Below are positions 15,883-34,766 of a stretch of 64,000 nt of DNA, one piece after another (the first letter of the stretch is position 1; every line of letters begins with the position of its first letter). A program made the translations under genes and the position numbers. Source of the DNA: an uncultured Enterobacterales bacterium. Its GTDB lineage: Bacteria; Pseudomonadota; Gammaproteobacteria; Enterobacterales; Succinivibrionaceae. The notes beneath the pieces were generated by a model, which saw only the letters and a list, made by a program, of their open reading frames with translations, ran no database searches and was not told where the DNA came from. Location: contig CAZFNS010000004.1 in NCBI GenBank assembly GCA_964520475.1, positions 12,655-76,654 on the forward strand, written 5' to 3'.

Positions 15883-16165
15883 ATGCCCCCGGTTCTCAAC
15901 CCCCGGCGTCCCTCTCCCGGAGAATCTCCGGCTGAATAATCCGCCGCGTTGTGCTAATATTTTCAAAGCGGCCGGGCCCGGAACGCCGCTCCCCGCGCGG
16001 TACGGATACGCCCAATCCGCCGTATGGGATAATTGTAAAGAATTAATGACGGTTTACCTAAATTTATTTTTCATTTTTTAGAATGCCGTGTCAGTAACTC
16101 CGGGGCGGGCGCCGCCGGGCGGCCGGAACGTTTTTCCGGCGAACTTCTTTAAGGGATCAGGACAG

Positions 16166-19100
16166 ATGAAAACCACAAACCAGGACACCATGAACCGGAC
16201 CGCGGGCGCCGCGGAACTCGAGGCGGAAATTTCCCCCGTTCTGAACTTCGCTCTGTGCCGCCGCGGGCTTCCTCTCGCGAAAAACATAACGGTCGCGGGC
16301 GGCGGCCCGGGGGATCTCACGCTCGAGGTCCGCGCCGGCGGCGGCTCCGGGGAAGTTTCCGCGCGGTGCGCCGCCGCGGTCGCCGCGGACGGCGCGGCCG
16401 CCGTTTCCGGCGTCCCCCTGCCGGAGGACGGCTTCAGGATCTTCCCGCCCGAGAAGGCGGAGACGGCCGGGGTCGGTCTCCGGGTCCTGGCGGCGGACGG
16501 GAAAGAGATCGCCGCCCTGGCCGGGAAAGCCGAAATCCAGCCCTTCGACTTCTGGCCCGGCTACGCCCTCAGCCCCGAGATAATCGCCTCCTTCGTCGTC
16601 CCCGGCGACCCCGGAGCCGCCGAAATAACGGCCCGGGCGGAGAAAATCCTGTCCGGGTCCGCGGGAGGCGGCTTCGACGGCTTCGGGAGCGGCGACCCCG
16701 CCCGCGCCGAAAAGCAGGCCGAGGCGCTGTTCGAGGCCGTCCGGGAGCTCAAAATCGCGGGCTCCCCCGCCCCGTCCGGGTTCGTCGAGCGCGGCCAGCG
16801 CGTCCGCTCCCCGGAGGCGGTCCTGGCCGCCCGGCGGGCGGACAGCCTCGAGGCCGCCTGCCTGTTCGCGTCCCTTCTGGAGCGCGCCGGCCTCAATCCG
16901 GTGGTCGCGTTCACCGACCGCCGGGCGCTCGCGGGATTCCGGACCGCCGACCGGATCCTGCCGGACGCGCTCACGGACAGCCGCCAGAGCGTGACCGGCG
17001 ACGATATCGTTCTCTTCGACGGCCTGGGCGCGGCCGCGGGCGGCGGGGACTTCGCCGCCGCCCGCGGGGAGGCCGCCCGCGCCCTCGCCGGGGAAAGCTT
17101 CGTCATGGCGGCGGACGTGCGCCGGTGCCGGCTCGCGGGCATCCGCCCGCTCCCGCGGCTCGAGGGGAGCGGCGCGGCGGCGAAAATAACCGAGTACGAA
17201 GCCCCCGCCGCGGCCGCCCCGGCCGGGGACGTCCTGGAAAGCGGCATCGCCGCGCGGAACGGCCAGAAGATCACCCGCCTCCAGTCCTGGGAAAACAAGC
17301 TGCTCGACCTCAGCCTGCGCAACCGCCTGCTCAACGTGAAATACGGGCGGGGATGCGTCCCGGTGATCCCCGCCTCGCTCTCCGGGTTCGAGGACAACCT
17401 GGCCTCGGGCGGAACCTGCGTCATAGAGCCGCTCCCGGAAAAGCTCTGCGACCAATGCGCGGCGAACGAGTACCGGGCGGACGCCGAGACCGCCGAGTTC
17501 CTGCGCGGGGAGGCGAAGCCGGACGCGGTGCTGCGCAGCCCCGTGAAAAACCCGGAGGAACTCGGCTCCCTGCTCCAGAAGTTTTACCGGGAGGCGCAGA
17601 ACTCCTACAGCGAAAACGGCTCCAACTCGTTCTTCCTGACCGCCGGCATGCTCAAATGGTACGAGTCGGAAGCCGCCCGCACCCCCAAATACGCCCCGAT
17701 CATCCTGATCCCGGTGGAGCTGTCCCGCAAAAACGTGCGCTCTCCCTTCACGCTGTCCGGGAAAGACGAGGAAAGCATCGTCAACTTCTCCCTGCTCGAG
17801 ATGCTGCGGCAGTTTTTCCGGATTGAAATCACCGGGCTGGATCCCCTGCCGCACGACGAGAAGGGCGTCGACGTGAACCTCATCCTCGCGACCGTGCGGA
17901 ACGCCGTCAAAGACATGCCGAACTGGGAGGTGCTCGAGACCTCGGTCATCGGCAACTTCTCCTTCAGCAAGTTCGTCATGTGGAAGGACCTGACGTCGAA
18001 CGCGGACATCCTGAGCCGAAGCCCCGTGTTCGCGGCGCTGTGCCGCGGCGAGGCCGGGGCCGCCGCGGCTTCCGGGAGCGGGGACGGCGCGGACGGGGAA
18101 CGGTCCGTGGACGGGCGCTTCTCCTACGGCAGGCTCTGCCAGCCCATCATGGCCGACACCAGCCAGATGGACGCCCTGCTCATGTCCGACGCCGGGGAGA
18201 GTTTCGTCCTGCAGGGCCCTCCCGGCACCGGCAAGTCCCAGACCATCACCAACATCATCGTGAACGCGCTCGCCCACAAGAAGAAAGTGCTGTTCGTGGC
18301 CGAAAAGATGGCCGCCCTCAGCGTCGTGCAGCAGCGCCTCGCCAAAATCGGCCTCGATCCCTTCTGCCTGGAACTGCACTCGAACAAGGTCAAGAAGACG
18401 GCCGTGCTCGAACGGCTCGACGCGGCCGTCGCCGCGGATTCGGCCAGCCCGCTCGAGGAATCGGCGAAAATCTGCGCGGAGCTGAACGCCCAGCGCGAGG
18501 AAATCGCCGGGCAGATCGCCGCCATGCACGAAAAAAGGCTGGCGGGTCTCAGCGTGTACGACGCGATGTGCCTGTGCGCCTCCGCGGACGCGGAGCTCCG
18601 GGATCTGGCCGCGGACGCCGGCGCCGCGGAAGGGATGACCGAGGAAAAGCTCAAAACGGCCGGCCTCGCCCTGCGGGAAATCGCCGTGCTGTCCGAGAAC
18701 CGGCGGCTGCTGTCCGAATACCCCCTGCGCTTCGCGCATCCCGCCGGCGCGGGCGGGGCGGCGCCCGAGGATCTCAAGGAATACGCGGGCGCGGCCGGCG
18801 CCTGCCGGGACGCCCTGGCGGCGCTCGGCGCCAAACTCGGTTTCGACGCCGGCAAAGTGACCGCGGGTCCGGGGCTTAAGGCCCTCGCGGATCTCTGCCG
18901 GGCCGCCGGCGCGGAGAACCTCGACGCGGCCCTGATCGCCTCGGGGGCCCTGTCCGGGGAAACGGAGGTCCTCGGCGCCCTGCGGCAAAAGACCGCCCGG
19001 CGGGCGGAACTCGCGGCGGAGCTCGGGGAGAACGCCGCGGACTTAAAGGATCTGGACGTGCACGCCCTGCTTAAGAAATGGGAGCTCGACGACCGGAAGT

Positions 19101-21301
19101 TCGTCCTGTTCCGCAAGCTGTCCCACGGCGGCGCCGTCAAGACCCTGCAGAACGCGCTCGGGGCGGCGGTCACGGTCACTCCCGAGAACTTCCCCGATCT
19201 CGCGCGCAAGGCCGAGGAATTCAAGAACCTCCTCGCCGGCATCGAAAGCGACGTCGCCCGCGTGGAAAAGCTCAACCCGGAGCTGGGCGCCGAGCTGCGC
19301 GCGTCCCCGGACGCGGCGTCCGGGCGGATCGGCGTGACCCTTAAATTCCTCGAGGCGGCCCGGGCCGCCGAGGCCGCGGTTCCCGGAGCCGCCGTGCTCG
19401 CGGGCGCCCGCGAGGCGCTGCGCGACCCCGCGGCGGGCCTGGCCGCGCTCAGGACCCTGGCCGCGGACTGCCTCGCGAAAACCGAAAAATTCGCGGCCCT
19501 GTCCGCCGCCGCGGAGGAATTTTTCCGGACGGATCCCGCCGAGCTCCCCGAGTCCCTGGACGAGCGCGCCGCGGCCGTGGGGGCCATGGCCGCGGCGGCC
19601 GGCGACCTGCCCGAATGGGAGGCGATAAGCTCGCGGCTCGACGCCCTCGCCGCGTGCGGCTTCGCCGATCTCGCCCGCAAACTGCGCCTCGGCCTGGTCT
19701 CCGCCAAAATCGGCGAGGACGCGGCCGCCCGAATCTTCGCGCGCTCGATGTGCGATTACTTCATCGCCCGGGAGCCGGCCCTCGGCTCGTTCCGGGGCAT
19801 CCTCTTCGAGGACCGCATGCTCCGCTTCAACGAGAACAACGAAAAATTCCGCGAGCTGTGCAAACGGAGCGCGGCCTACCTGCTCGCGAGCCTCCGGAGC
19901 ATCGCGCAGAACCGGCCCGACCTCGCCGCGGAGCAGACGTACCTCATCAAGGCCGTCAAGAGCAAAGGACGCAAGCAGAGCATCCGCGGCATCTTCGACA
20001 ACATCTCCGGGCTGCTGCGCGAGATGTGCCCGTGCATGCTCATGAGCCCCCTGTCGGCCGCGCAGTACCTGTCGCCCGACAAGTACGTCTTCGACCTGGT
20101 GATCTTCGACGAGGCCTCGCAGCTGCCCACCTCCGAGGCCGCCGGGGCGATCGGCCGGGGTAAGCAGGTCATCGTCGCGGGCGACTCCAAGCAGATGCCC
20201 CCGACCGATTTCTTCTCCGCGAAGCAGAACGACGAGGAAGACGAGACCGCCGATCTCGAAAGCCTCCTCGACGACTGCATCGCCCTGAGGATGCCGGTCA
20301 AAACGCTCAGCTGGCATTACCGGAGCACCCACGAAAGCCTCATCTCCTTCAGCAACGCCCTGTACTACGGCGGCGGGCTGTACACCTTCCCGTCCCCGGA
20401 CGACCGGGCCTCGCGGATCGAGTACCGCCCCGTGAAAGGGATCTACGACCGCGGCGGCAGCGGCCGGAACAAGGAGGAAAGCGCGGCGGTGATCTCCTGC
20501 CTGGCCGATTATCTCGCCAATCCGGACAACCTGTCCTCGTCCGTGGGCATCCTCACCTTCAACACCAAGCAGCAGACGCTGCTCGAGGAGGATCTGGAAA
20601 AGCTCTTCCGGGATCGCCCCGAACTCGAGGACGCCTCCCGCAAGCTTCCGGAGCCGCTGTTCGTCAAGAACCTCGAAAACGTCCAGGGCGACGAGCGGGA
20701 CGTCATGCTGTTCTCCATCGGCTTCGGCCCCGACAAGACCGGGCGGGTCACGCTGAACTTCGGGCCCCTCAACCGGGCCGGCGGGGAAAGGCGCCTCAAC
20801 GTCGCCGTCACCCGCTCGAAGAAACGGATGGTGATCTTCTCGTCGCTCGAGCCCGACGCCATGCACGTCTCGGACGTTTCCCCGCAGGGCGTGAAAGACC
20901 TCAAGGCCTTCCTCGCGTACGCCAAGAAGGGCGGCGGGGTCCTGCCGGCCGGGAAGGGCGCCGGCCCGGCCCGGGCGGACGCCCTGACGGCGGAAATCGC
21001 CGCCGCGCTCGGGAAGGCGGGCTACGAGTGCGACGCGAACGTCGGCGCCTCGCGGTTCAAAATCGATCTCGCGGTCCGGGATCCGCGGCGGCCGGACGTT
21101 TACCTGGCCTGCGTCCTGACCGACGGCCGGGGTTTCGGCTCCGACTGCATGATCGCGGACAAAACCGGCGGCCAGCCGGCGGCGCTCCGCCAGCTCGGCT
21201 GGAACATCGTCCGGGTGTGGAGCTGCGAATGGTACAAGAACCGGGACAAGGCGGCCGAACAGCTCGCCGGGCGGCTGCGCGAGCTCGGGGAGGGGCGGTA
21301 A
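16166..21301 (+). CDS. Giant Upf1-like SF1B helicase with four parts: a ~370-aa N-terminal region of unknown function, a DUF4011-like region, a split AAA_11/AAA_12 helicase core and a C-terminal restriction-endonuclease-fold domain
   Basis: The track ORF starts at the GTG at 16088. The first in-frame ATG is at 16166, preceded by AAGGGAtcAGGA. Residue numbers below count from 16088.
- Motif I: GPPGTGKS (aa 710-717, nt 18215-18238).
- Motif Ia: VLFVAEKMAALSVV.
- Motif II: DEASQ (nt 20108-20122).
- Motif III: VIVAGDSKQMPPT.
- Motif IV: LSWHYRSTHESLISFSN.
- Motif V: VGILTFNTKQQ and ENVQGDERDVMLFS.
- Motif VI: RRLNVAVTRSKKRMVIF.
- DUF4011-like: LQSWENKLLDLSLRNRLLN.
- C-terminal tail: FKIDLAV...VLTDG...LGWNIVRVWSCEWY. 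Confidence 0.85.
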   Translation: MKTTNQDTMNRTAGAAELEAEISPVLNFALCRRGLPLAKNITVAGGGPGDLTLEVRAGGGSGEVSARCAAAVAADGAAAVSGVPLPEDGFRIFPPEKAETAGVGLRVLAADGKEIAALAGKAEIQPFDFWPGYALSPEIIASFVVPGDPGAAEITARAEKILSGSAGGGFDGFGSGDPARAEKQAEALFEAVRELKIAGSPAPSGFVERGQRVRSPEAVLAARRADSLEAACLFASLLERAGLNPVVAFTDRRALAGFRTADRILPDALTDSRQSVTGDDIVLFDGLGAAAGGGDFAAARGEAARALAGESFVMAADVRRCRLAGIRPLPRLEGSGAAAKITEYEAPAAAAPAGDVLESGIAARNGQKITRLQSWENKLLDLSLRNRLLNVKYGRGCVPVIPASLSGFEDNLASGGTCVIEPLPEKLCDQCAANEYRADAETAEFLRGEAKPDAVLRSPVKNPEELGSLLQKFYREAQNSYSENGSNSFFLTAGMLKWYESEAARTPKYAPIILIPVELSRKNVRSPFTLSGKDEESIVNFSLLEMLRQFFRIEITGLDPLPHDEKGVDVNLILATVRNAVKDMPNWEVLETSVIGNFSFSKFVMWKDLTSNADILSRSPVFAALCRGEAGAAAASGSGDGADGERSVDGRFSYGRLCQPIMADTSQMDALLMSDAGESFVLQGPPGTGKSQTITNIIVNALAHKKKVLFVAEKMAALSVVQQRLAKIGLDPFCLELHSNKVKKTAVLERLDAAVAADSASPLEESAKICAELNAQREEIAGQIAAMHEKRLAGLSVYDAMCLCASADAELRDLAADAGAAEGMTEEKLKTAGLALREIAVLSENRRLLSEYPLRFAHPAGAGGAAPEDLKEYAGAAGACRDALAALGAKLGFDAGKVTAGPGLKALADLCRAAGAENLDAALIASGALSGETEVLGALRQKTARRAELAAELGENAADLKDLDVHALLKKWELDDRKFVLFRKLSHGGAVKTLQNALGAAVTVTPENFPDLARKAEEFKNLLAGIESDVARVEKLNPELGAELRASPDAASGRIGVTLKFLEAARAAEAAVPGAAVLAGAREALRDPAAGLAALRTLAADCLAKTEKFAALSAAAEEFFRTDPAELPESLDERAAAVGAMAAAAGDLPEWEAISSRLDALAACGFADLARKLRLGLVSAKIGEDAAARIFARSMCDYFIAREPALGSFRGILFEDRMLRFNENNEKFRELCKRSAAYLLASLRSIAQNRPDLAAEQTYLIKAVKSKGRKQSIRGIFDNISGLLREMCPCMLMSPLSAAQYLSPDKYVFDLVIFDEASQLPTSEAAGAIGRGKQVIVAGDSKQMPPTDFFSAKQNDEEDETADLESLLDDCIALRMPVKTLSWHYRSTHESLISFSNALYYGGGLYTFPSPDDRASRIEYRPVKGIYDRGGSGRNKEESAAVISCLADYLANPDNLSSSVGILTFNTKQQTLLEEDLEKLFRDRPELEDASRKLPEPLFVKNLENVQGDERDVMLFSIGFGPDKTGRVTLNFGPLNRAGGERRLNVAVTRSKKRMVIFSSLEPDAMHVSDVSPQGVKDLKAFLAYAKKGGGVLPAGKGAGPARADALTAEIAAALGKAGYECDANVGASRFKIDLAVRDPRRPDVYLACVLTDGRGFGSDCMIADKTGGQPAALRQLGWNIVRVWSCEWYKNRDKAAEQLAGRLRELGEGR

Positions 21302-21337
21302 AAAACCCCGCCCCGCGCCCCCAAGGCCCGATAATTT

Positions 21338-21346
21338 TGCTACAAT
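21338..21346 (+). promoter_or_regulatory. Candidate extended -10 promoter (TGcTACAAT) for kdsC-lptCAB
   Basis: A ttTGcTACAATat lies 70 nt upstream of the kdsC ATG. No -35 element is recognisable. Confidence 0.4.
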
Positions 21347-21414
21347 ATGCGTAAAAGCGCCCGGCGCGGCCGGAACGCGGATAATAAGTATACGATCGGA
21401 CTTGCGAAGAAAAA

Positions 21415-21981
21415 ATGGATGACATAGCGGCCCTCACCTGCCCGACCCCCTACGGACCGGTCCCGGCGGAGCTGATGCGGCGCGTCGGGAAGATCAGACT
21501 GCTGCTCAGCGACGTCGACGGAGTGCTCTCCGACGGCCGGATCTATCTGTCGAACAGCGGCGAGGAAATCAAGAATTTCAACGCTAAAGACGGCTTCGGC
21601 ATCGTGGCCGTGCAGAAGCGCGGCGTGGATTTCGGGGTCATCACCGGCCGGAAGTCCGCGATCGTCGAGAACCGCCTGAAGTCGCTCGGGGCCCGGTACA
21701 TCCGCCAGGGGGCGGAAGACAAAACCGCCGTTCTCGCGGAAATCATGAACGCCGCGGGCCTCGCCCGGGAAGAGGTGGCCTACATCGGCGACGACGTGAT
21801 CGACGTTACCGTGTTCGCCCGCTGCGGGCTGGCCTTCTGTCCCGCCGACGCCCACCCCACCGTGCGCGCCATAGCGGATTACGTGTGCCGGCTCCGCGGC
21901 GGCGACGGCGCCGTCAGGGAAGTGTGCGATCTCATTCTCGCGGCGCGGGGCGCCCTCGGCGCCGTGGGGGCGAGCGTATAG
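21415..21981 (+). CDS. kdsC: 3-deoxy-D-manno-octulosonate 8-phosphate phosphatase
   Basis: The product is 188 aa with the HAD motifs LLLSDVDGVLSDG and ...YIGDDVIDV... A KdsC-like GGDGAVREVCDLIL is also present. Confidence 0.9.
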   Translation: MDDIAALTCPTPYGPVPAELMRRVGKIRLLLSDVDGVLSDGRIYLSNSGEEIKNFNAKDGFGIVAVQKRGVDFGVITGRKSAIVENRLKSLGARYIRQGAEDKTAVLAEIMNAAGLAREEVAYIGDDVIDVTVFARCGLAFCPADAHPTVRAIADYVCRLRGGDGAVREVCDLILAARGALGAVGASV

Positions 21982-25561: not shown

Positions 25562-25820
25562 CGCCCGCCCGGGAGGCGTCCGGACGGGGCCCGCCGGCGC
25601 CGGCGGGCCGGCGCCAAAACCTCGTCTCCAGTCACTATTCTAAGGTTTCGCGGTGGATATTAATCAGGGCGGAATATAGAATTAGATCAGGCGGAGGGCC
25701 GGACCGGGCTCTCCCCCCGCGGGCCGCGCGCGGCCGGAACGCCGCGGATTCCCGTAAAAAACGCCGGCGGGAACGGCTTGCGCCTTTATTTTAAATGTAA
25801 TCATCCTATCGTTAAGGAGT

Positions 25821-30962: not shown

Positions 30963-31559
30963 ATGAGCAAAAACCGAAAGAGCCCCGCCCCGGGCGGGAC
31001 GGTCAGAATCATCGCGGGAGCGCACCGGGGGCGGAGACTGCCCGTCCCGGACGTCCCCGGCCTGCGGCCCACCTCGGACCGGGTCAGGGAGACGCTTTTC
31101 AACTGGCTCATGTTCCGGATCCGGGGGAAAAAGGTCCTCGACGCCTTCGCCGGGGCGGGATCGCTCGGGTTCGAGGCCCAGTCGCGGGGCGCCCTGGAGG
31201 TGACCATGCTCGAGCTGAACCCGGCGGTGTGCGCCCGGCTCAGGGCCGGCGCCGCCGCGCTCGGCTGCGCCAACGTGAACGTAATCGCGACCGACGCGCG
31301 CGCGTTCCTGAGAAGCCGCCGCGAGCCTTTCGACGTTATCTTCCTGGATCCCCCGTTCCGGACCGGCCTCCTGGAGGAGTGCCTCCCGCTCCTGACCCCC
31401 GCGATCGCCCCGGCCGGGACCCTGCTGTACCTCGAGCACGAAAAGGAAAGCGCCCCGGTCCCGCCGGGCCGCTTCAGGCCGCTCAGGGAGATGACGGCGG
31501 GACAGACGGCCTGTCGTCTTTACGAGGCGGGGCCCGGCCCCGCCGGGGGAACTGCCTAA
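30963..31559 (+). CDS. rsmD: 16S rRNA (guanine966-N2)-methyltransferase
   Basis: The track ORF was trimmed to the ATG at 30963. The sequence is ...RIIAGAHRGRRLPVPDVPGLRPTSDRVRETLFNWL...DAFAGAGSLGFEA...VIFLDPPF. The gene is divergent from ftsY as in E. coli. Confidence 0.85.
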   Translation: MSKNRKSPAPGGTVRIIAGAHRGRRLPVPDVPGLRPTSDRVRETLFNWLMFRIRGKKVLDAFAGAGSLGFEAQSRGALEVTMLELNPAVCARLRAGAAALGCANVNVIATDARAFLRSRREPFDVIFLDPPFRTGLLEECLPLLTPAIAPAGTLLYLEHEKESAPVPPGRFRPLREMTAGQTACRLYEAGPGPAGGTA

Positions 31560-34500
31560 AGATCCATGAGCACGTCGTCTTCCGCGCCGGCGTCGCCGAG
31601 CATGGCGAGGTATTTGACGGCCATGGCCTGGCTGTTCTTCAGATCGCGCGGGTTCATCAGGGACAGGAGGCTGACCTTGAAGTTGGCGGCTTCCCTGAAG
31701 GCGCTGTCCAGCGACAGGCAGACGAGCGTCCACACGTAGGCGTCGACGACGCTTTTTCCGACCCCGAGCCCGTCCCGGTACATCTTGGCGAGCTCGAGCT
31801 GCGCGGCGCAGTCGCCGCACTTGGCCGCCGTCAGCAGCAGTTCGGCCGCCCGGGAGTAATTGATCTCGCAGCCCAGCCCGTACCGGTACAGGATCCCCAG
31901 TTTAGTCGCGGATTTGAGGTGGTACTTCTCCGCCGCGCGCTGCAGGTAGCCCAGGGCCCGGCCGTAATCGTTCCTGTAGTATTTGCCGTCGATGTACATG
32001 CAGGCGAGATAGTAGAGCGCCTCGGGATAGCCGCGGTCCGCGGCCTCGTTGACCAGCTTCAGCCCGTATTCGGCGGAGCTGTTCCTCAGCTTCTCCTCGA
32101 TGTGCAGGATGCCGAGCCGGTAGGCGCACTCAGGGATGTTTTTCTTCGCCCCGATGTACAGCCACTTCTCGGCCTCGTCGTAGTTGATCCGCGAGTTCGA
32201 ATCCTCCCGCAGGTACATGTTGGCGAGCAGCAGATAGGCCCGGCCGCAGTTGTCGTTGACCAGGATGCGGTAGTAGTGCGCCGCCTCGTCGGGATCGCAC
32301 GCGCAGCCGATCCCCTTCTCGTACATCCGGCCCAGGGCGTAATAGGCCTTCTGGTAGCCGAGCTCGCCCGCCTTCCTGAAATACTCGAGGGCCTCCCAGG
32401 GCTTCGAAACGATGCCGATGCCCTTGTAGCAGCACACGCCCATCATGTAGAGCGACTTCAGGTAATTTTTGTCGGCCGAGGCCTTGAAATGGGTCAGCGC
32501 CTTGCGGAAGTCCCGCTCCGCGAATTTGCCCTCCAGGTAAATCATGCCGAGCTCGTAGAGGGCCTCCCGGCTGCCGCCGTCCGCGAGTTTCTTAAGCAGC
32601 CCGAGGCCGGCCTCGGGATCCCGGGCGGGGCCGTCCTCCTGCAGGTACAGCCGGCTCAGGACCAGCATGCTGCGGCTGTGGCCGAGCCCGACGCCCTTTT
32701 TCAGGAACTCGAGCGCCTTCGCGATGCTGTACACCGCGCTGTCCGGCGACAGGTACAGCGAGGCGAGCAGATCCACCGCCCTGCCGCTGCCGAGGGCCGC
32801 GGCCTTCAGCAGGTGCTTTTCGGCCAGTTTCTCGTTTTTGTCGCAGCCGGTCCCGTTCATGTAGCAGGACGCCAGATCCTCGAGGGCCGGCAGGTAGCCG
32901 CTCTCCGCGGCCCGGGCGTAGAGCCGGTACGCCTTTTTCGGGTCCTTTTCCACCCCGCGGCCTTCCGAGTACATTTTGCCGAGCCGGTAGGAAGCCGCCT
33001 CGTTGCCGCTCTCGGAGGCCTGCCGGTACCACTCCGCCGACTTCTGCAGGTTCACCGCGGGGACGTTGCCCTTGTCGTAAATCTCCGCCATGTGCATGCG
33101 GGCTTCCATGTTCCCCCGGTTCGCCGCCTTTTCCGACCAGTCGGCGGATTTGGCGAAGTCCTGCTTGGTCCCCTCGCCGCTCGCGTACATCTGCGAGACC
33201 ATGTACTGGGCCCGCGAATCGCCCCCGAGCGAAGCCTTCATCAGGTACTCGAACGCCTCGCGGTACTTCGGGTCGCCGCCGTTTTCCTTCGGCTCCCCGC
33301 CGTTCTCCGGGGCCGCGGCCGCCGGCGCGCCGCCCGCCGCGGGGGCTCCCGCCGCTTCCGGGGCGCGGCCCGCGGCCTCCTCGTCGGCCCGCTTTTTCAG
33401 GAGGCACCCGTACTCGTACATCGCCCCGGCGTGCTCCTGCTCGGCGGCTTTCCGGTACCATTCGCCGGCGGCGTCCGCGTCGCCCTCGCGCGCGTAGATG
33501 CCCCCGAGGGTGTACTGCGCCTCGGCGTGGCCGAGCTCGGCCGCCTCGCGGTACAGATCCAGCGCCTTGCGCGCCAGATCCTCCGGGCTGCCTTCCGGCC
33601 CGGCGGCTTCCCCGTCCGGAGCCGGCTCTTCCTTCCGTTCCCCGGCTTCGGCCGGATCCGCGGGCTGGTCGGCGGCGCTCAGTTTTTCGTATATGACCCC
33701 GAGGAGATAGACGGCCTCGCCGTCCCCGCGCTCCGCCGCGTGCCTGAGCAGGGGCAGCGCCTCCAGGGGCTTCCGCTCGTTCATGAGGAGCCTCGCGATC
33801 TCCACGTACGACTCCGGCACGCCCGCCGCCCGGGCCCGGCCGAGATAATCGCGGGCCTTGTCCATGTCGCGTTCCACGATCTCGCCGCGGAGGTAGATCC
33901 GGGCCAGCATCATGTACGCCTCGGGGCACAGTTCCTTGACCCGGTCGAGGAGTTTCACCCCCTCGCGGGGCGCGTAGAACCGGCTCTTCTTGTCGGTGTA
34001 CACGCCGGCGAGGCTGCAGTAGGCCCCGTACACGCCCCGGTCCATGGCCCGCCCGAGCCACAGCACGGCCGACAGCTCGTCCCGGGCCGCGCCCTTCTCC
34101 CGGAGGCACAGCCGGCCGAGCTCGTACTGGGCGAGCGGGTGGCCCTGGCGCGCGGCCCTTTCGAGCCAGAAGGCGCCCTCCCCGGCGTCCGGGCCGCCGC
34201 GCCCCAGGCACGCCATGCCGTGCGCGTACATCGCGCCGGCGGAACCCTGGCCGGCGTAATACCGGTCGGGCCCGCCGCGGTCCGCGCCGGCCTCCGGGGC
34301 CTCCGCCTCCGGGGTTTCGCCCGCGGCGCCGTCCCCGCCGGGCGCCGGGGCGGACGCGCCCGCGAAAAAGCCGCCGCTCCGGTAGCGCGCCGGCAGGAAG
34401 CCGAGCTCCGCGCTCTTTTTGAGGAGCTCGCCCCCGTCCTCCCCCGCCGCCGGGGAAACGTTGTGATCCAGAATCATGCTGCCGAGGAAAAACATGGCCT

Positions 34501-34621
34501 CCGCGGCATCCGCGCCGCGGCACTCCCTGAAGCACCCGGCCGCCTCGTCGTACCTGCCGGAACGATACAGTTCCCTGCCCCGGCTCAGCCCGGATCTGTC
34601 TTCCGCTGGTTGGTTCTCCAT
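31556..34621 (-). CDS. Very large Sel1-like repeat (SLR, TPR-related) protein, about 1,020 aa, no recognisable signal peptide
   Basis: Roughly two dozen tandem units of about 36 aa fit the SLR pattern A..Y.LG.MY..G.GV.KD...A..W..KAA..G. Examples are ASYRLGKMYSEGRGVEKDPKKAYRLYARAAESGYLPA, KAYYALGRMYEKGIGCACDPDEAAHYY and AAQLELAKMYRDGLGVGKSVVDAYVW. The start is uncertain: ATG at 34621 (MENQPAEDR) or ATG at 34708. Confidence 0.85.
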   Translation of the reverse strand: MENQPAEDRSGLSRGRELYRSGRYDEAAGCFRECRGADAAEAMFFLGSMILDHNVSPAAGEDGGELLKKSAELGFLPARYRSGGFFAGASAPAPGGDGAAGETPEAEAPEAGADRGGPDRYYAGQGSAGAMYAHGMACLGRGGPDAGEGAFWLERAARQGHPLAQYELGRLCLREKGAARDELSAVLWLGRAMDRGVYGAYCSLAGVYTDKKSRFYAPREGVKLLDRVKELCPEAYMMLARIYLRGEIVERDMDKARDYLGRARAAGVPESYVEIARLLMNERKPLEALPLLRHAAERGDGEAVYLLGVIYEKLSAADQPADPAEAGERKEEPAPDGEAAGPEGSPEDLARKALDLYREAAELGHAEAQYTLGGIYAREGDADAAGEWYRKAAEQEHAGAMYEYGCLLKKRADEEAAGRAPEAAGAPAAGGAPAAAAPENGGEPKENGGDPKYREAFEYLMKASLGGDSRAQYMVSQMYASGEGTKQDFAKSADWSEKAANRGNMEARMHMAEIYDKGNVPAVNLQKSAEWYRQASESGNEAASYRLGKMYSEGRGVEKDPKKAYRLYARAAESGYLPALEDLASCYMNGTGCDKNEKLAEKHLLKAAALGSGRAVDLLASLYLSPDSAVYSIAKALEFLKKGVGLGHSRSMLVLSRLYLQEDGPARDPEAGLGLLKKLADGGSREALYELGMIYLEGKFAERDFRKALTHFKASADKNYLKSLYMMGVCCYKGIGIVSKPWEALEYFRKAGELGYQKAYYALGRMYEKGIGCACDPDEAAHYYRILVNDNCGRAYLLLANMYLREDSNSRINYDEAEKWLYIGAKKNIPECAYRLGILHIEEKLRNSSAEYGLKLVNEAADRGYPEALYYLACMYIDGKYYRNDYGRALGYLQRAAEKYHLKSATKLGILYRYGLGCEINYSRAAELLLTAAKCGDCAAQLELAKMYRDGLGVGKSVVDAYVWTLVCLSLDSAFREAANFKVSLLSLMNPRDLKNSQAMAVKYLAMLGDAGAEDDVLMDL

Positions 34622-34766
34622 AATGATGATTTCCCCGTGGCCAAAACACCGGCCCGCCGCCCCTTTCCCCGGCGAGGCCGGTTCGGGCGGCAAAGCCCCT
34701 TTTGCCATGTTAGCACGACTCGGGCGCGGCCACGCCGTCCGGTGCCGATTTTATGAGCTTCATAAC

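Follow-up and report, generated by a model that had tools for sequence, protein, structure and literature searches.

A divergent, trimmed helicase-nuclease of the ProA / PDC-S37 family, placed by profile comparison, in the mla-lpt locus of an uncultured Succinivibrionaceae bacterium

We describe a single gene within a 64,000-nucleotide stretch of DNA from an uncultured Enterobacterales bacterium of the family Succinivibrionaceae (contig CAZFNS010000004.1 of assembly GCA_964520475.1, positions 12,655 to 76,654; hereafter the window), which encodes a large protein uniting a DUF4011 region, a predicted Upf1-like helicase of superfamily 1B (SF1B) and a Vsr-like nuclease domain. By sequence comparison, this protein is a divergent and trimmed member of a family that is already catalogued, as ProA in NCBIfam and as PDC-S37 in PADLOC, and not a new class of system. 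The reading that we favour, with some reserve, sees in it a working helicase-nuclease of the defence type, acting against phage or other foreign nucleic acid.

Placement in a catalogued family

In NCBIfam release 20.0 (2026) the protein is matched best by an equivalog model of 1903 positions, NF058533 (‘anti-phage protein ProA’), which has a cut-off of 1500 bits. Residues 27-1708 align collinearly with profile positions 1-1707 of this model at 1490.1 bits. In PADLOC-DB 2.0.0 (2023) the best match is PDC-S37, a single-gene phage-defence candidate with a profile of 1550 positions, which residues 370-1705 match over profile positions 8-1339 (E 2.4e-284, 945 bits). The strengths of these profile matches, and of the Pfam matches given below, are far beyond chance. 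The likeness to ProA extends to the order of domains (beta-sandwich, Cys/His alpha-beta domain, DUF4011, insertion-split SF1B helicase, Vsr-like nuclease) and to the organisation as a single gene without a partner, and PDC-S37 is likewise a stand-alone gene. Nevertheless, typical ProA members reach 2070-2300 bits on the ProA model (2073-2302 bits for the homologues P0002, P0008, P0010, P0029 and P0048), the last ~200 profile positions of ProA, which correspond to DUF3320, are absent from our protein, and the last ~210 positions of PDC-S37 are unmatched. Two further departures from ProA, the loss of a Cys/His pair and changes at R1664 and R1666, are treated below.

The nearest homologues in a collection of 5.8 billion proteins are nearly all 1,900-2,050 residues long and carry DUF3320, and a search with the N-terminal domain alone returned 1,050 cluster representatives (50% identity) at E<=1e-10, with most proteins among the best 150 listed measuring ~1,700-2,300 aa. 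A literature search found no paper on ProA or PDC-S37 and no account of their mechanism. DefenseFinder includes a system named Prometheus, for which this search yielded no confirmed link to ProA. A preliminary description of the gene, made from its sequence alone, had held that giant DUF4011 proteins have no assigned function and that the architecture fits no named system. Neither claim stands, given that NCBIfam names both Hhe and ProA as anti-phage, that PADLOC lists Hhe as well as PDC-S37, and that our protein matches ProA nearly end to end. Because the family was already catalogued, the novelty proposed in that description is not supported.

Domain architecture

The open frame on the forward strand spans 16088-21301; the ATG at 16166 is preceded by AAGGGATCAGGACAG and is also called as the start in an independent assembly, and the stop codon lies at 21299-21301. 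Translation bears out the single intact reading frame and every motif string and coordinate of the preliminary description: the Walker A motif GPPGTGKS occupies residues 684-691 (18215-18238, with the codon of K690 at 18233-18235), motif II, DEASQ, occupies residues 1315-1319 (20108-20122), and the strings for motifs III-VI, together with one more, are found as well (VIVAGDSKQMPPT, LSWHYRSTHESLISFSN, VQGDERDVMLFS, RRLNVAVTRSKKRMVIF, LQSWENKLLDLSLRNRLLN). Pfam and structure models agree on the domain order proposed there, namely an N-terminal domain of unknown type, DUF4011, a split Upf1-like SF1B helicase and a Vsr-like tail (Table 1). Two AlphaFold2 models from 39-row alignments cover residues 1-660 (mb28a38d2c364) and 650-1711 (m81daa5f02fe9), and both are confident, with a mean predicted local distance difference test (pLDDT) score of 82.5 and 86.8, respectively.

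Among the Pfam families that the preliminary description had named for searching, DUF4011 (residues 378-547, E 8.9e-36), AAA_11 (residues 664-743, E 1.1e-15, and again, more weakly, close to motif II), AAA_12 (residues 1365-1560, E 2.3e-15) and REase_MTES_1575 (PF18741, 62.7 bits against a Pfam cut-off of 38.2) were matched and DUF3320 was not; Pfam finds no PLD domain in the protein either. The invariant columns of the DUF4011 region are W375, L379, L380, D381, R385, G485, W498, P511 and N540. Helicase motifs I-VI are invariant across 26-81 homologues, and a Foldseek search with the C-terminal model, the structural comparison that the preliminary description had envisaged, recovers IGHMBP2, UPF1, SETX and Dna2 at E 3e-10 to 7e-10 (E 3e-10 to IGHMBP2 4b3f and UPF1 2wjv) and, within a range that extends to 1e-9, Aquarius; PDB sequence searches return these helicases too. 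By its motifs and its modelled two-RecA fold, then, the protein is an SF1B (Upf1-like) helicase, with predicted ATPase activity and polarity. That the helicase is split, as had been proposed, is borne out by the model, in which a long all-helical insertion interrupts RecA1. The insertion is common to the family, as the ProA profile aligns through it, and is poorly conserved in sequence (19% identity of our protein to the family).

Eukaryotic SF1B helicases (UPF1, IGHMBP2, SETX/Sen1, Dna2) share the helicase core fold and all motifs, whereas their accessory domains are unrelated and the RecA1 insertion of ~540 residues is a feature of our protein. Dna2 also joins a nuclease to an SF1B helicase, but this is an N-terminal PD-(D/E)xK nuclease, in contrast to the C-terminal Vsr-like domain found here. 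Over that nuclease region, a family-profile search of the PDB matches RAP-domain chains, and no ProA- or Hhe-like solved structure is among the matches of the PDB searches. The near-invariant aspartates D1634, D1653 and D1665 of the nuclease domain are kept; its catalytic residues are assigned by analogy and its nuclease activity is a prediction. PF18741 takes its name from the Vsr-family restriction-endonuclease domain, which MTES_1575-type proteins likewise carry, and the HEPN survey of Anantharaman et al. (2013, PMC3710099) reported that the MTES_1575 protein has a transglutaminase domain as well as winged-helix repeats that overlap DUF3320. In that survey the MTES_1575-type proteins are fused to HEPN (SWT1/Abi2), whereas our protein gives no HEPN match, lacks DUF3320 and has lost the dyad described next.

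Table 1 Positions of the gene, its domains and associated features in the window, with median percentage identities by region
Feature	Position	Strand	Basis or remark	Identity to family (%)	Identity within family (%)
Hairpin GCCGGAACGTTTTTCCGGC in the 5' leader, just 5' of the ribosome-binding site	16122..16140	+	Consensus scan only
Gene for divergent ProA / PDC-S37-family helicase-nuclease (predicted)	16166..21301	+	Intact open reading frame, 1,711 codons + stop
N-terminal beta-sandwich, residues 9-124	16190..16537	+	AlphaFold2, block pLDDT 71-93; most diverged region	16	28
Alpha/beta domain, residues 130-345, putatively papain/transglutaminase-like	16553..17200	+	Alignment columns, AlphaFold2, weak Foldseek	32	44
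S227 codon, site of near-invariant family Cys	16844..16846	+	Alignment column
R253 codon, site of near-invariant family His	16922..16924	+	Alignment column
DUF4011 region, residues 371-627 in model, including W375..LLDLSLRN	17276..18046	+	Pfam, model pLDDT mostly 80-97
RecA1 first part of SF1B helicase, residues 660-745, with Walker A (18215-18238)	18143..18400	+	Pfam, motifs	70	71
All-helical insertion in RecA1, ~540 residues (746-1285)	18401..20020	+	AlphaFold2 (m81daa5f02fe9)
RecA1 remainder and RecA2, residues 1286-1565, with motif II DEASQ and motifs III-VI	20021..20860	+	Pfam, Foldseek, PDB sequence matches	56	62
Vsr-like restriction-endonuclease-fold domain (REase_MTES_1575), residues 1610-1703	20993..21274	+	Pfam, model pLDDT ~83-94	31	43
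Spacer to kdsC, 113 bp	21302..21414	.	No room for, and no trace of, a DUF3320 tail of ~200 residues

The N-terminal domains and loss of the Cys/His pair

The N-terminal beta-sandwich yields weak Ig-like or sandwich matches in Foldseek. In the alpha/beta domain that follows, the family displays a near-invariant pattern, GTCLD...GHAF.G.WL...E.T, in the alignment columns of our residues 225-229, 252-259 and 285. In the model, helix 227-240 precedes strands 245-250, 254-259 and 281-284, which sets the family cysteine at the start of the helix and the histidine and acidic residue on strands 254-259 and 281-284, the layout of papain/transglutaminase-like enzymes. Foldseek finds 3kd4_A, a putative transglutaminase-like protease, and the transglutaminase TG2 (9bc2_A) over ~345 columns, as weak matches (E ~0.01, probability 0.6-0.66). 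From alignment and model, the N-terminal domain of the family is therefore probably a papain/transglutaminase-like enzymatic fold, which we infer rather than read from a sequence match, since Pfam at E<=1 gives nothing on the N-terminal region of our protein, P0002 or P0029, and a profile of the domain alone has no match among PDB sequences at E<=10.

In our protein this pattern is broken. The cysteine of column 227 (in 76 of 80 homologues) is a serine, the histidine of column 253 (likewise 76/80) is an arginine, and the tryptophan of column 259 (74/80) is also an arginine; the acidic residue of column 285, Glu or Asp in all 80, is kept as Asp. The homologue P0038 lacks the Cys and His too. 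With both residues lost, the papain/transglutaminase-like domain of our protein would serve only as a scaffold or binding module.

Further features that set this copy apart

The closest relative is only 38% identical to our protein, and in a library clustered at 50% identity the best non-self match of the N-terminal domain scores 144 bits, against 776 for the self match. The protein ends 5-8 residues past the nuclease domain, whereas its homologues run on for 208-302 residues. The short gap between its stop codon and kdsC shows that the missing tail is not a frameshift artefact. One homologue (P0048) is also without DUF3320, yet scores 2073 bits on the ProA model, and the low score of our protein thus reflects divergence as well as truncation. 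In the nuclease domain, position 1664 is Arg in 70 of 80 homologues and Ala here, and position 1666 is Arg in 79 of 80 and Lys here. The absence of the DUF3320 tail and the loss of the N-terminal Cys/His pair had both been overlooked in the preliminary description.

Divergence is unevenly spread over the protein. As the median identities by region demonstrate (Table 1), the helicase core is, at the level of aligned sequence, as conserved as in other members of the family, and the accessory domains have drifted much further.

Several lines of evidence bear on whether the gene is maintained. Its length of 1,711 aa is identical in 4 assemblies, and in a sister sample (L081) 21 kb around it are 99.7% identical with unchanged gene order. 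Within the gene, our sequence and L081 differ by 16 synonymous and 6 non-synonymous changes, although about three quarters of sites are non-synonymous, a ratio that points to purifying selection. The helical insertion holds four of the six non-synonymous differences and the N-terminal domains the others, while the helicase core and the nuclease have none. The evidence, drawn from few events, points to a gene maintained by selection.

The locus and the genomic contexts of the family

Upstream of the gene, on the reverse strand, lie murB, murA, mlaC, mlaD, mlaE and mlaF, and downstream, on the forward strand, a kdsC-like HAD phosphatase gene, lptC, lptA, lptB and rpoN. Further large genes of the window are also of housekeeping type (ftsY, trkA/trkH, a lytic transglycosylase, an RNB-domain ribonuclease of RNase II/R type and oligopeptidase A), as are genes for an aminopeptidase and a PLD-type, probably cardiolipin, synthase, and recG. 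No partner gene stands beside the helicase-nuclease gene, in agreement with its earlier depiction as a solo gene in a housekeeping neighbourhood.

A scan with MlaE, taking one genome per species, gave 80 gammaproteobacterial loci, with the best matches (73% identical) in Aeromonas and Succinivibrionaceae. Those loci that were looked at closely retain the gene order murA-mlaCDEF / kdsC-lptC-lptA-lptB-rpoN, and a homologue of our gene occurs in none of the 80 (0/80), which makes the gene a lineage-specific single-gene insertion. It lies directly between mlaF and kdsC (15967-21414, compared with loci L001-L012), a gap that measures ~1.2-2.2 kb in Aeromonas and Enterobacterales loci and is almost without spacer in Succinatimonas (L006). 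The extra sequence in Aeromonas and Enterobacterales is presumably kdsD (with yrbG), as we take it from the gene order of E. coli. A repeat search of 15900-21500 gave only G+C-rich chance matches, and no flanking repeats, integrase or tRNA were found. In G+C content, both overall and at third codon positions (GC3), the gene is similar to the genes around it (GC3 0.90, compared with 0.85-0.91). Given this composition and the absence of insertion scars, the insertion is not visibly recent.

Elsewhere, members of the family are found in varied company. Across the seven family contexts that we examined there is no conserved neighbour, and 4/7 adjoin defence, toxin-antitoxin or mobile-element genes: P0002 (L082 2215-8854) stands with a retron-type reverse transcriptase, a WYL gene, an RNase T-like exonuclease and two GmrSD_N genes; P0010 with BREX, ParE and Fic; P0029 with a type I restriction-modification system in a mobile-element setting; and P0091 (L089 16695-17341) with an MNT-HepT toxin-antitoxin pair. 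The context of P0106 is mixed, and P0008 and P0034 are alone amid housekeeping genes. A solitary location, as noted for our gene in the preliminary description, is therefore normal for the family. Copies also reside on plasmids of Bacteroides, Pseudomonas and rhizobia. With no fixed partner, defence or mobile neighbours and plasmid copies, the family behaves like a mobile single-gene defence system. The surroundings of P0091 and P0002 resemble defence islands and could hold further uncharacterised genes.

The best matches among annotated records, at ~40% identity, are NZ_OY725931.1 (H1), a 45.8-kb plasmid of Bacteroides finegoldii, and MT836269.1 (H16), a ‘Bacteriophage sp.’ contig of 11.4 kb that comes from human faeces and carries no annotation. 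The two matches are almost equal in score and extent, and the records may represent the same element. A phage origin of the family was considered and set aside, as this faecal contig is the single full-length match of that kind and the family is not typically phage-borne. One family member of 2,932 residues (P0059) carries the UniRef label of a plant, Tanacetum cinerariifolium, and is most likely bacterial contamination of the plant assembly.

Other features of the locus

The 5' leader of the gene contains a hairpin, GCCGGAACGTTTTTCCGGC, which ends ~25 nt before the start codon and may be a candidate regulatory stem-loop. Separately, each of three intergenic spacers contains an exact copy of the 12-mer GCGGCCGGAACG, 5' of the gene (16119-16130), 3' of it (21366-21377) and after rpoN (25730-25741), with flanks that do not align. 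This count was reached in 15/100 shuffles and is not significant, and the 12-mer is probably either a matter of chance or a very short motif resembling repetitive extragenic palindromic (REP) sequences. Elsewhere in the window, a Sel1/TPR repeat protein of 1,050 residues (31556-34708, reverse strand; Sel1 E 6e-71) is encoded amid housekeeping genes.

Function and alternative explanations

We regard it as moderately probable that the gene encodes a working helicase-nuclease of the defence type, directed against phage or other foreign nucleic acid. Under this hypothesis, the Upf1-like SF1B motor would bind single-stranded nucleic acid of the invader and, driven by ATP, track along it 5' to 3', its substrate being for example replication or recombination intermediates, or transcripts. 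Engagement of the motor would license the C-terminal Vsr-like endonuclease, by releasing or positioning it, to cut DNA, and this cutting would destroy the invader or halt the infected cell. Recognition or auto-inhibition may fall to DUF4011, the large insertion in RecA1 and the domains at the N-terminus. Such a scheme would be analogous to Hachiman and Druantia III, in which a helicase acting on aberrant DNA licenses a nuclease; these are offered as analogies only. As the dyad is lost and DUF3320 absent, steps needing those two activities would have been dropped or replaced in our protein, for which a reduced set of modules may suffice, protease-like catalysis and DUF3320 having been dispensed with. 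In this lineage the gene would have entered the space between mlaF and kdsC as one unit and then been kept by selection.

Several observations weigh against a role in defence. The equivalog cut-off of the ProA model is missed by 10 bits, the term ‘anti-phage’ for ProA comes from a database label and genomic association, the 64-kb window holds no other defence gene, and the test for selection is based on only 22 differences. Moreover, if DUF3320, the Cys/His pair or the arginines at 1664 and 1666 are essential in ProA, defence may have been lost in this protein.

An alternative, which we find doubtful, is that the gene is a domesticated descendant of a ProA-type defence gene, stripped of the sensing and regulatory parts specific to defence, that would now apply its conserved helicase core to a host task such as the removal of R-loops or stalled complexes, the repair of DNA or the quality control of RNA. 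Its solitary place in a core locus for envelope biogenesis, where no defence or mobile-element genes adjoin it, would fit this explanation, as would its neighbour-like codon composition, the loss of the Cys/His pair and DUF3320, the signal of purifying selection, and a helicase core conserved at the level of the family beside much more diverged beta-sandwich, transglutaminase-like and Vsr-like domains. However, the absence of the gene from all of the related mla-lpt loci shows that it is not a general housekeeping gene, its location says little when canonical members are also solitary amid housekeeping genes, the nuclease aspartates are kept, and nothing positive speaks for any host function.

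A more specific proposal, spanning defence and domestication, is that of a natural ‘minimal ProA’, which we think unlikely: a defence helicase-nuclease in the mla-lpt locus would have shed both the dyad and DUF3320 and yet have stayed under selection, either because these modules are dispensable or because the protein was recruited by the host.

It is rather improbable that the gene is a functionally dead relic, a one-time defence gene that is in the course of being lost and whose frame is still open by chance. The substitutions C227S and H253R, at sites conserved in at least 95% of the 80 homologues, together with W259R, R1664A and R1666K, the absent C-terminal domain and the long branch on which the protein sits are what such decay might leave behind. 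Yet a stop-free frame of 5.1 kb at 68-70% G+C is unlikely to last without selection, the length is the same in all four assemblies, synonymous differences outnumber non-synonymous ones, all helicase motifs and the three nuclease aspartates are intact, and the AlphaFold2 models are confident throughout. The signal of purifying selection, the uninterrupted frame and the preserved residues of helicase and nuclease thus argue against a dead relic.

Finally, it is very improbable that the protein belongs instead to Hhe, Mokosh or Nhi, which are also named defence systems of the Upf1-like kind, because the matches to these are partial (the C-terminal half for Hhe, the helicase for MkoA and MkoC) and those to ProA and PDC-S37 are far stronger, placing the protein end to end. 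Hhe, a DUF4011 domain-containing anti-phage protein with an SF1 Upf1-like helicase (bioRxiv 10.1101/2024.02.29.582594), is not mentioned in the PADLOC 2021 paper. Like our protein, it is a single large polypeptide that combines DUF4011 with a Upf1-like helicase and a Vsr-like nuclease, and the C-terminal halves of the two are homologous, but the alignment begins only at about residue 1095 and the N-terminal half of our protein does not align to the Hhe models. The NCBIfam model of Hhe (NF042953) gives 663 bits against a cut-off of 2000, over residues 1095-1707 only, and the PADLOC model (PDLC02194) E 2.8e-149 over residues 1253-1707 only. The Mokosh proteins MkoA (E 3.7e-26) and MkoC (E 1.1e-22) match solely within residues 1304-1562, and our protein has neither the PLD domain nor a partner gene; Nhi matches at noise level (E 0.021), in the P-loop only. 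The earlier proposal of a defence-type helicase-nuclease belonging to neither Mokosh nor Nhi is therefore upheld, as the models of those systems match only the helicase core or the P-loop.

Implications for the family

The DUF4011 group of large single-protein helicase-nucleases is widespread: a search with just the N-terminal domain finds over 1,000 clusters (50% identity). Within this group, the protein described here, with its helicase and nuclease aspartates kept but its protease-like dyad and DUF3320 tail gone, serves mainly as a set of natural deletions and mutations from which the modules that the motor and nuclease require may be read, with a comparative value against canonical ProA. 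If a defence helicase-nuclease has indeed shed its dyad and DUF3320 while remaining under selection, and if those modules are dispensable for immunity, then the modules that this protein retains would delimit the family's functional core; if it was instead recruited to a host function, it would provide an example of the domestication of a defence gene.

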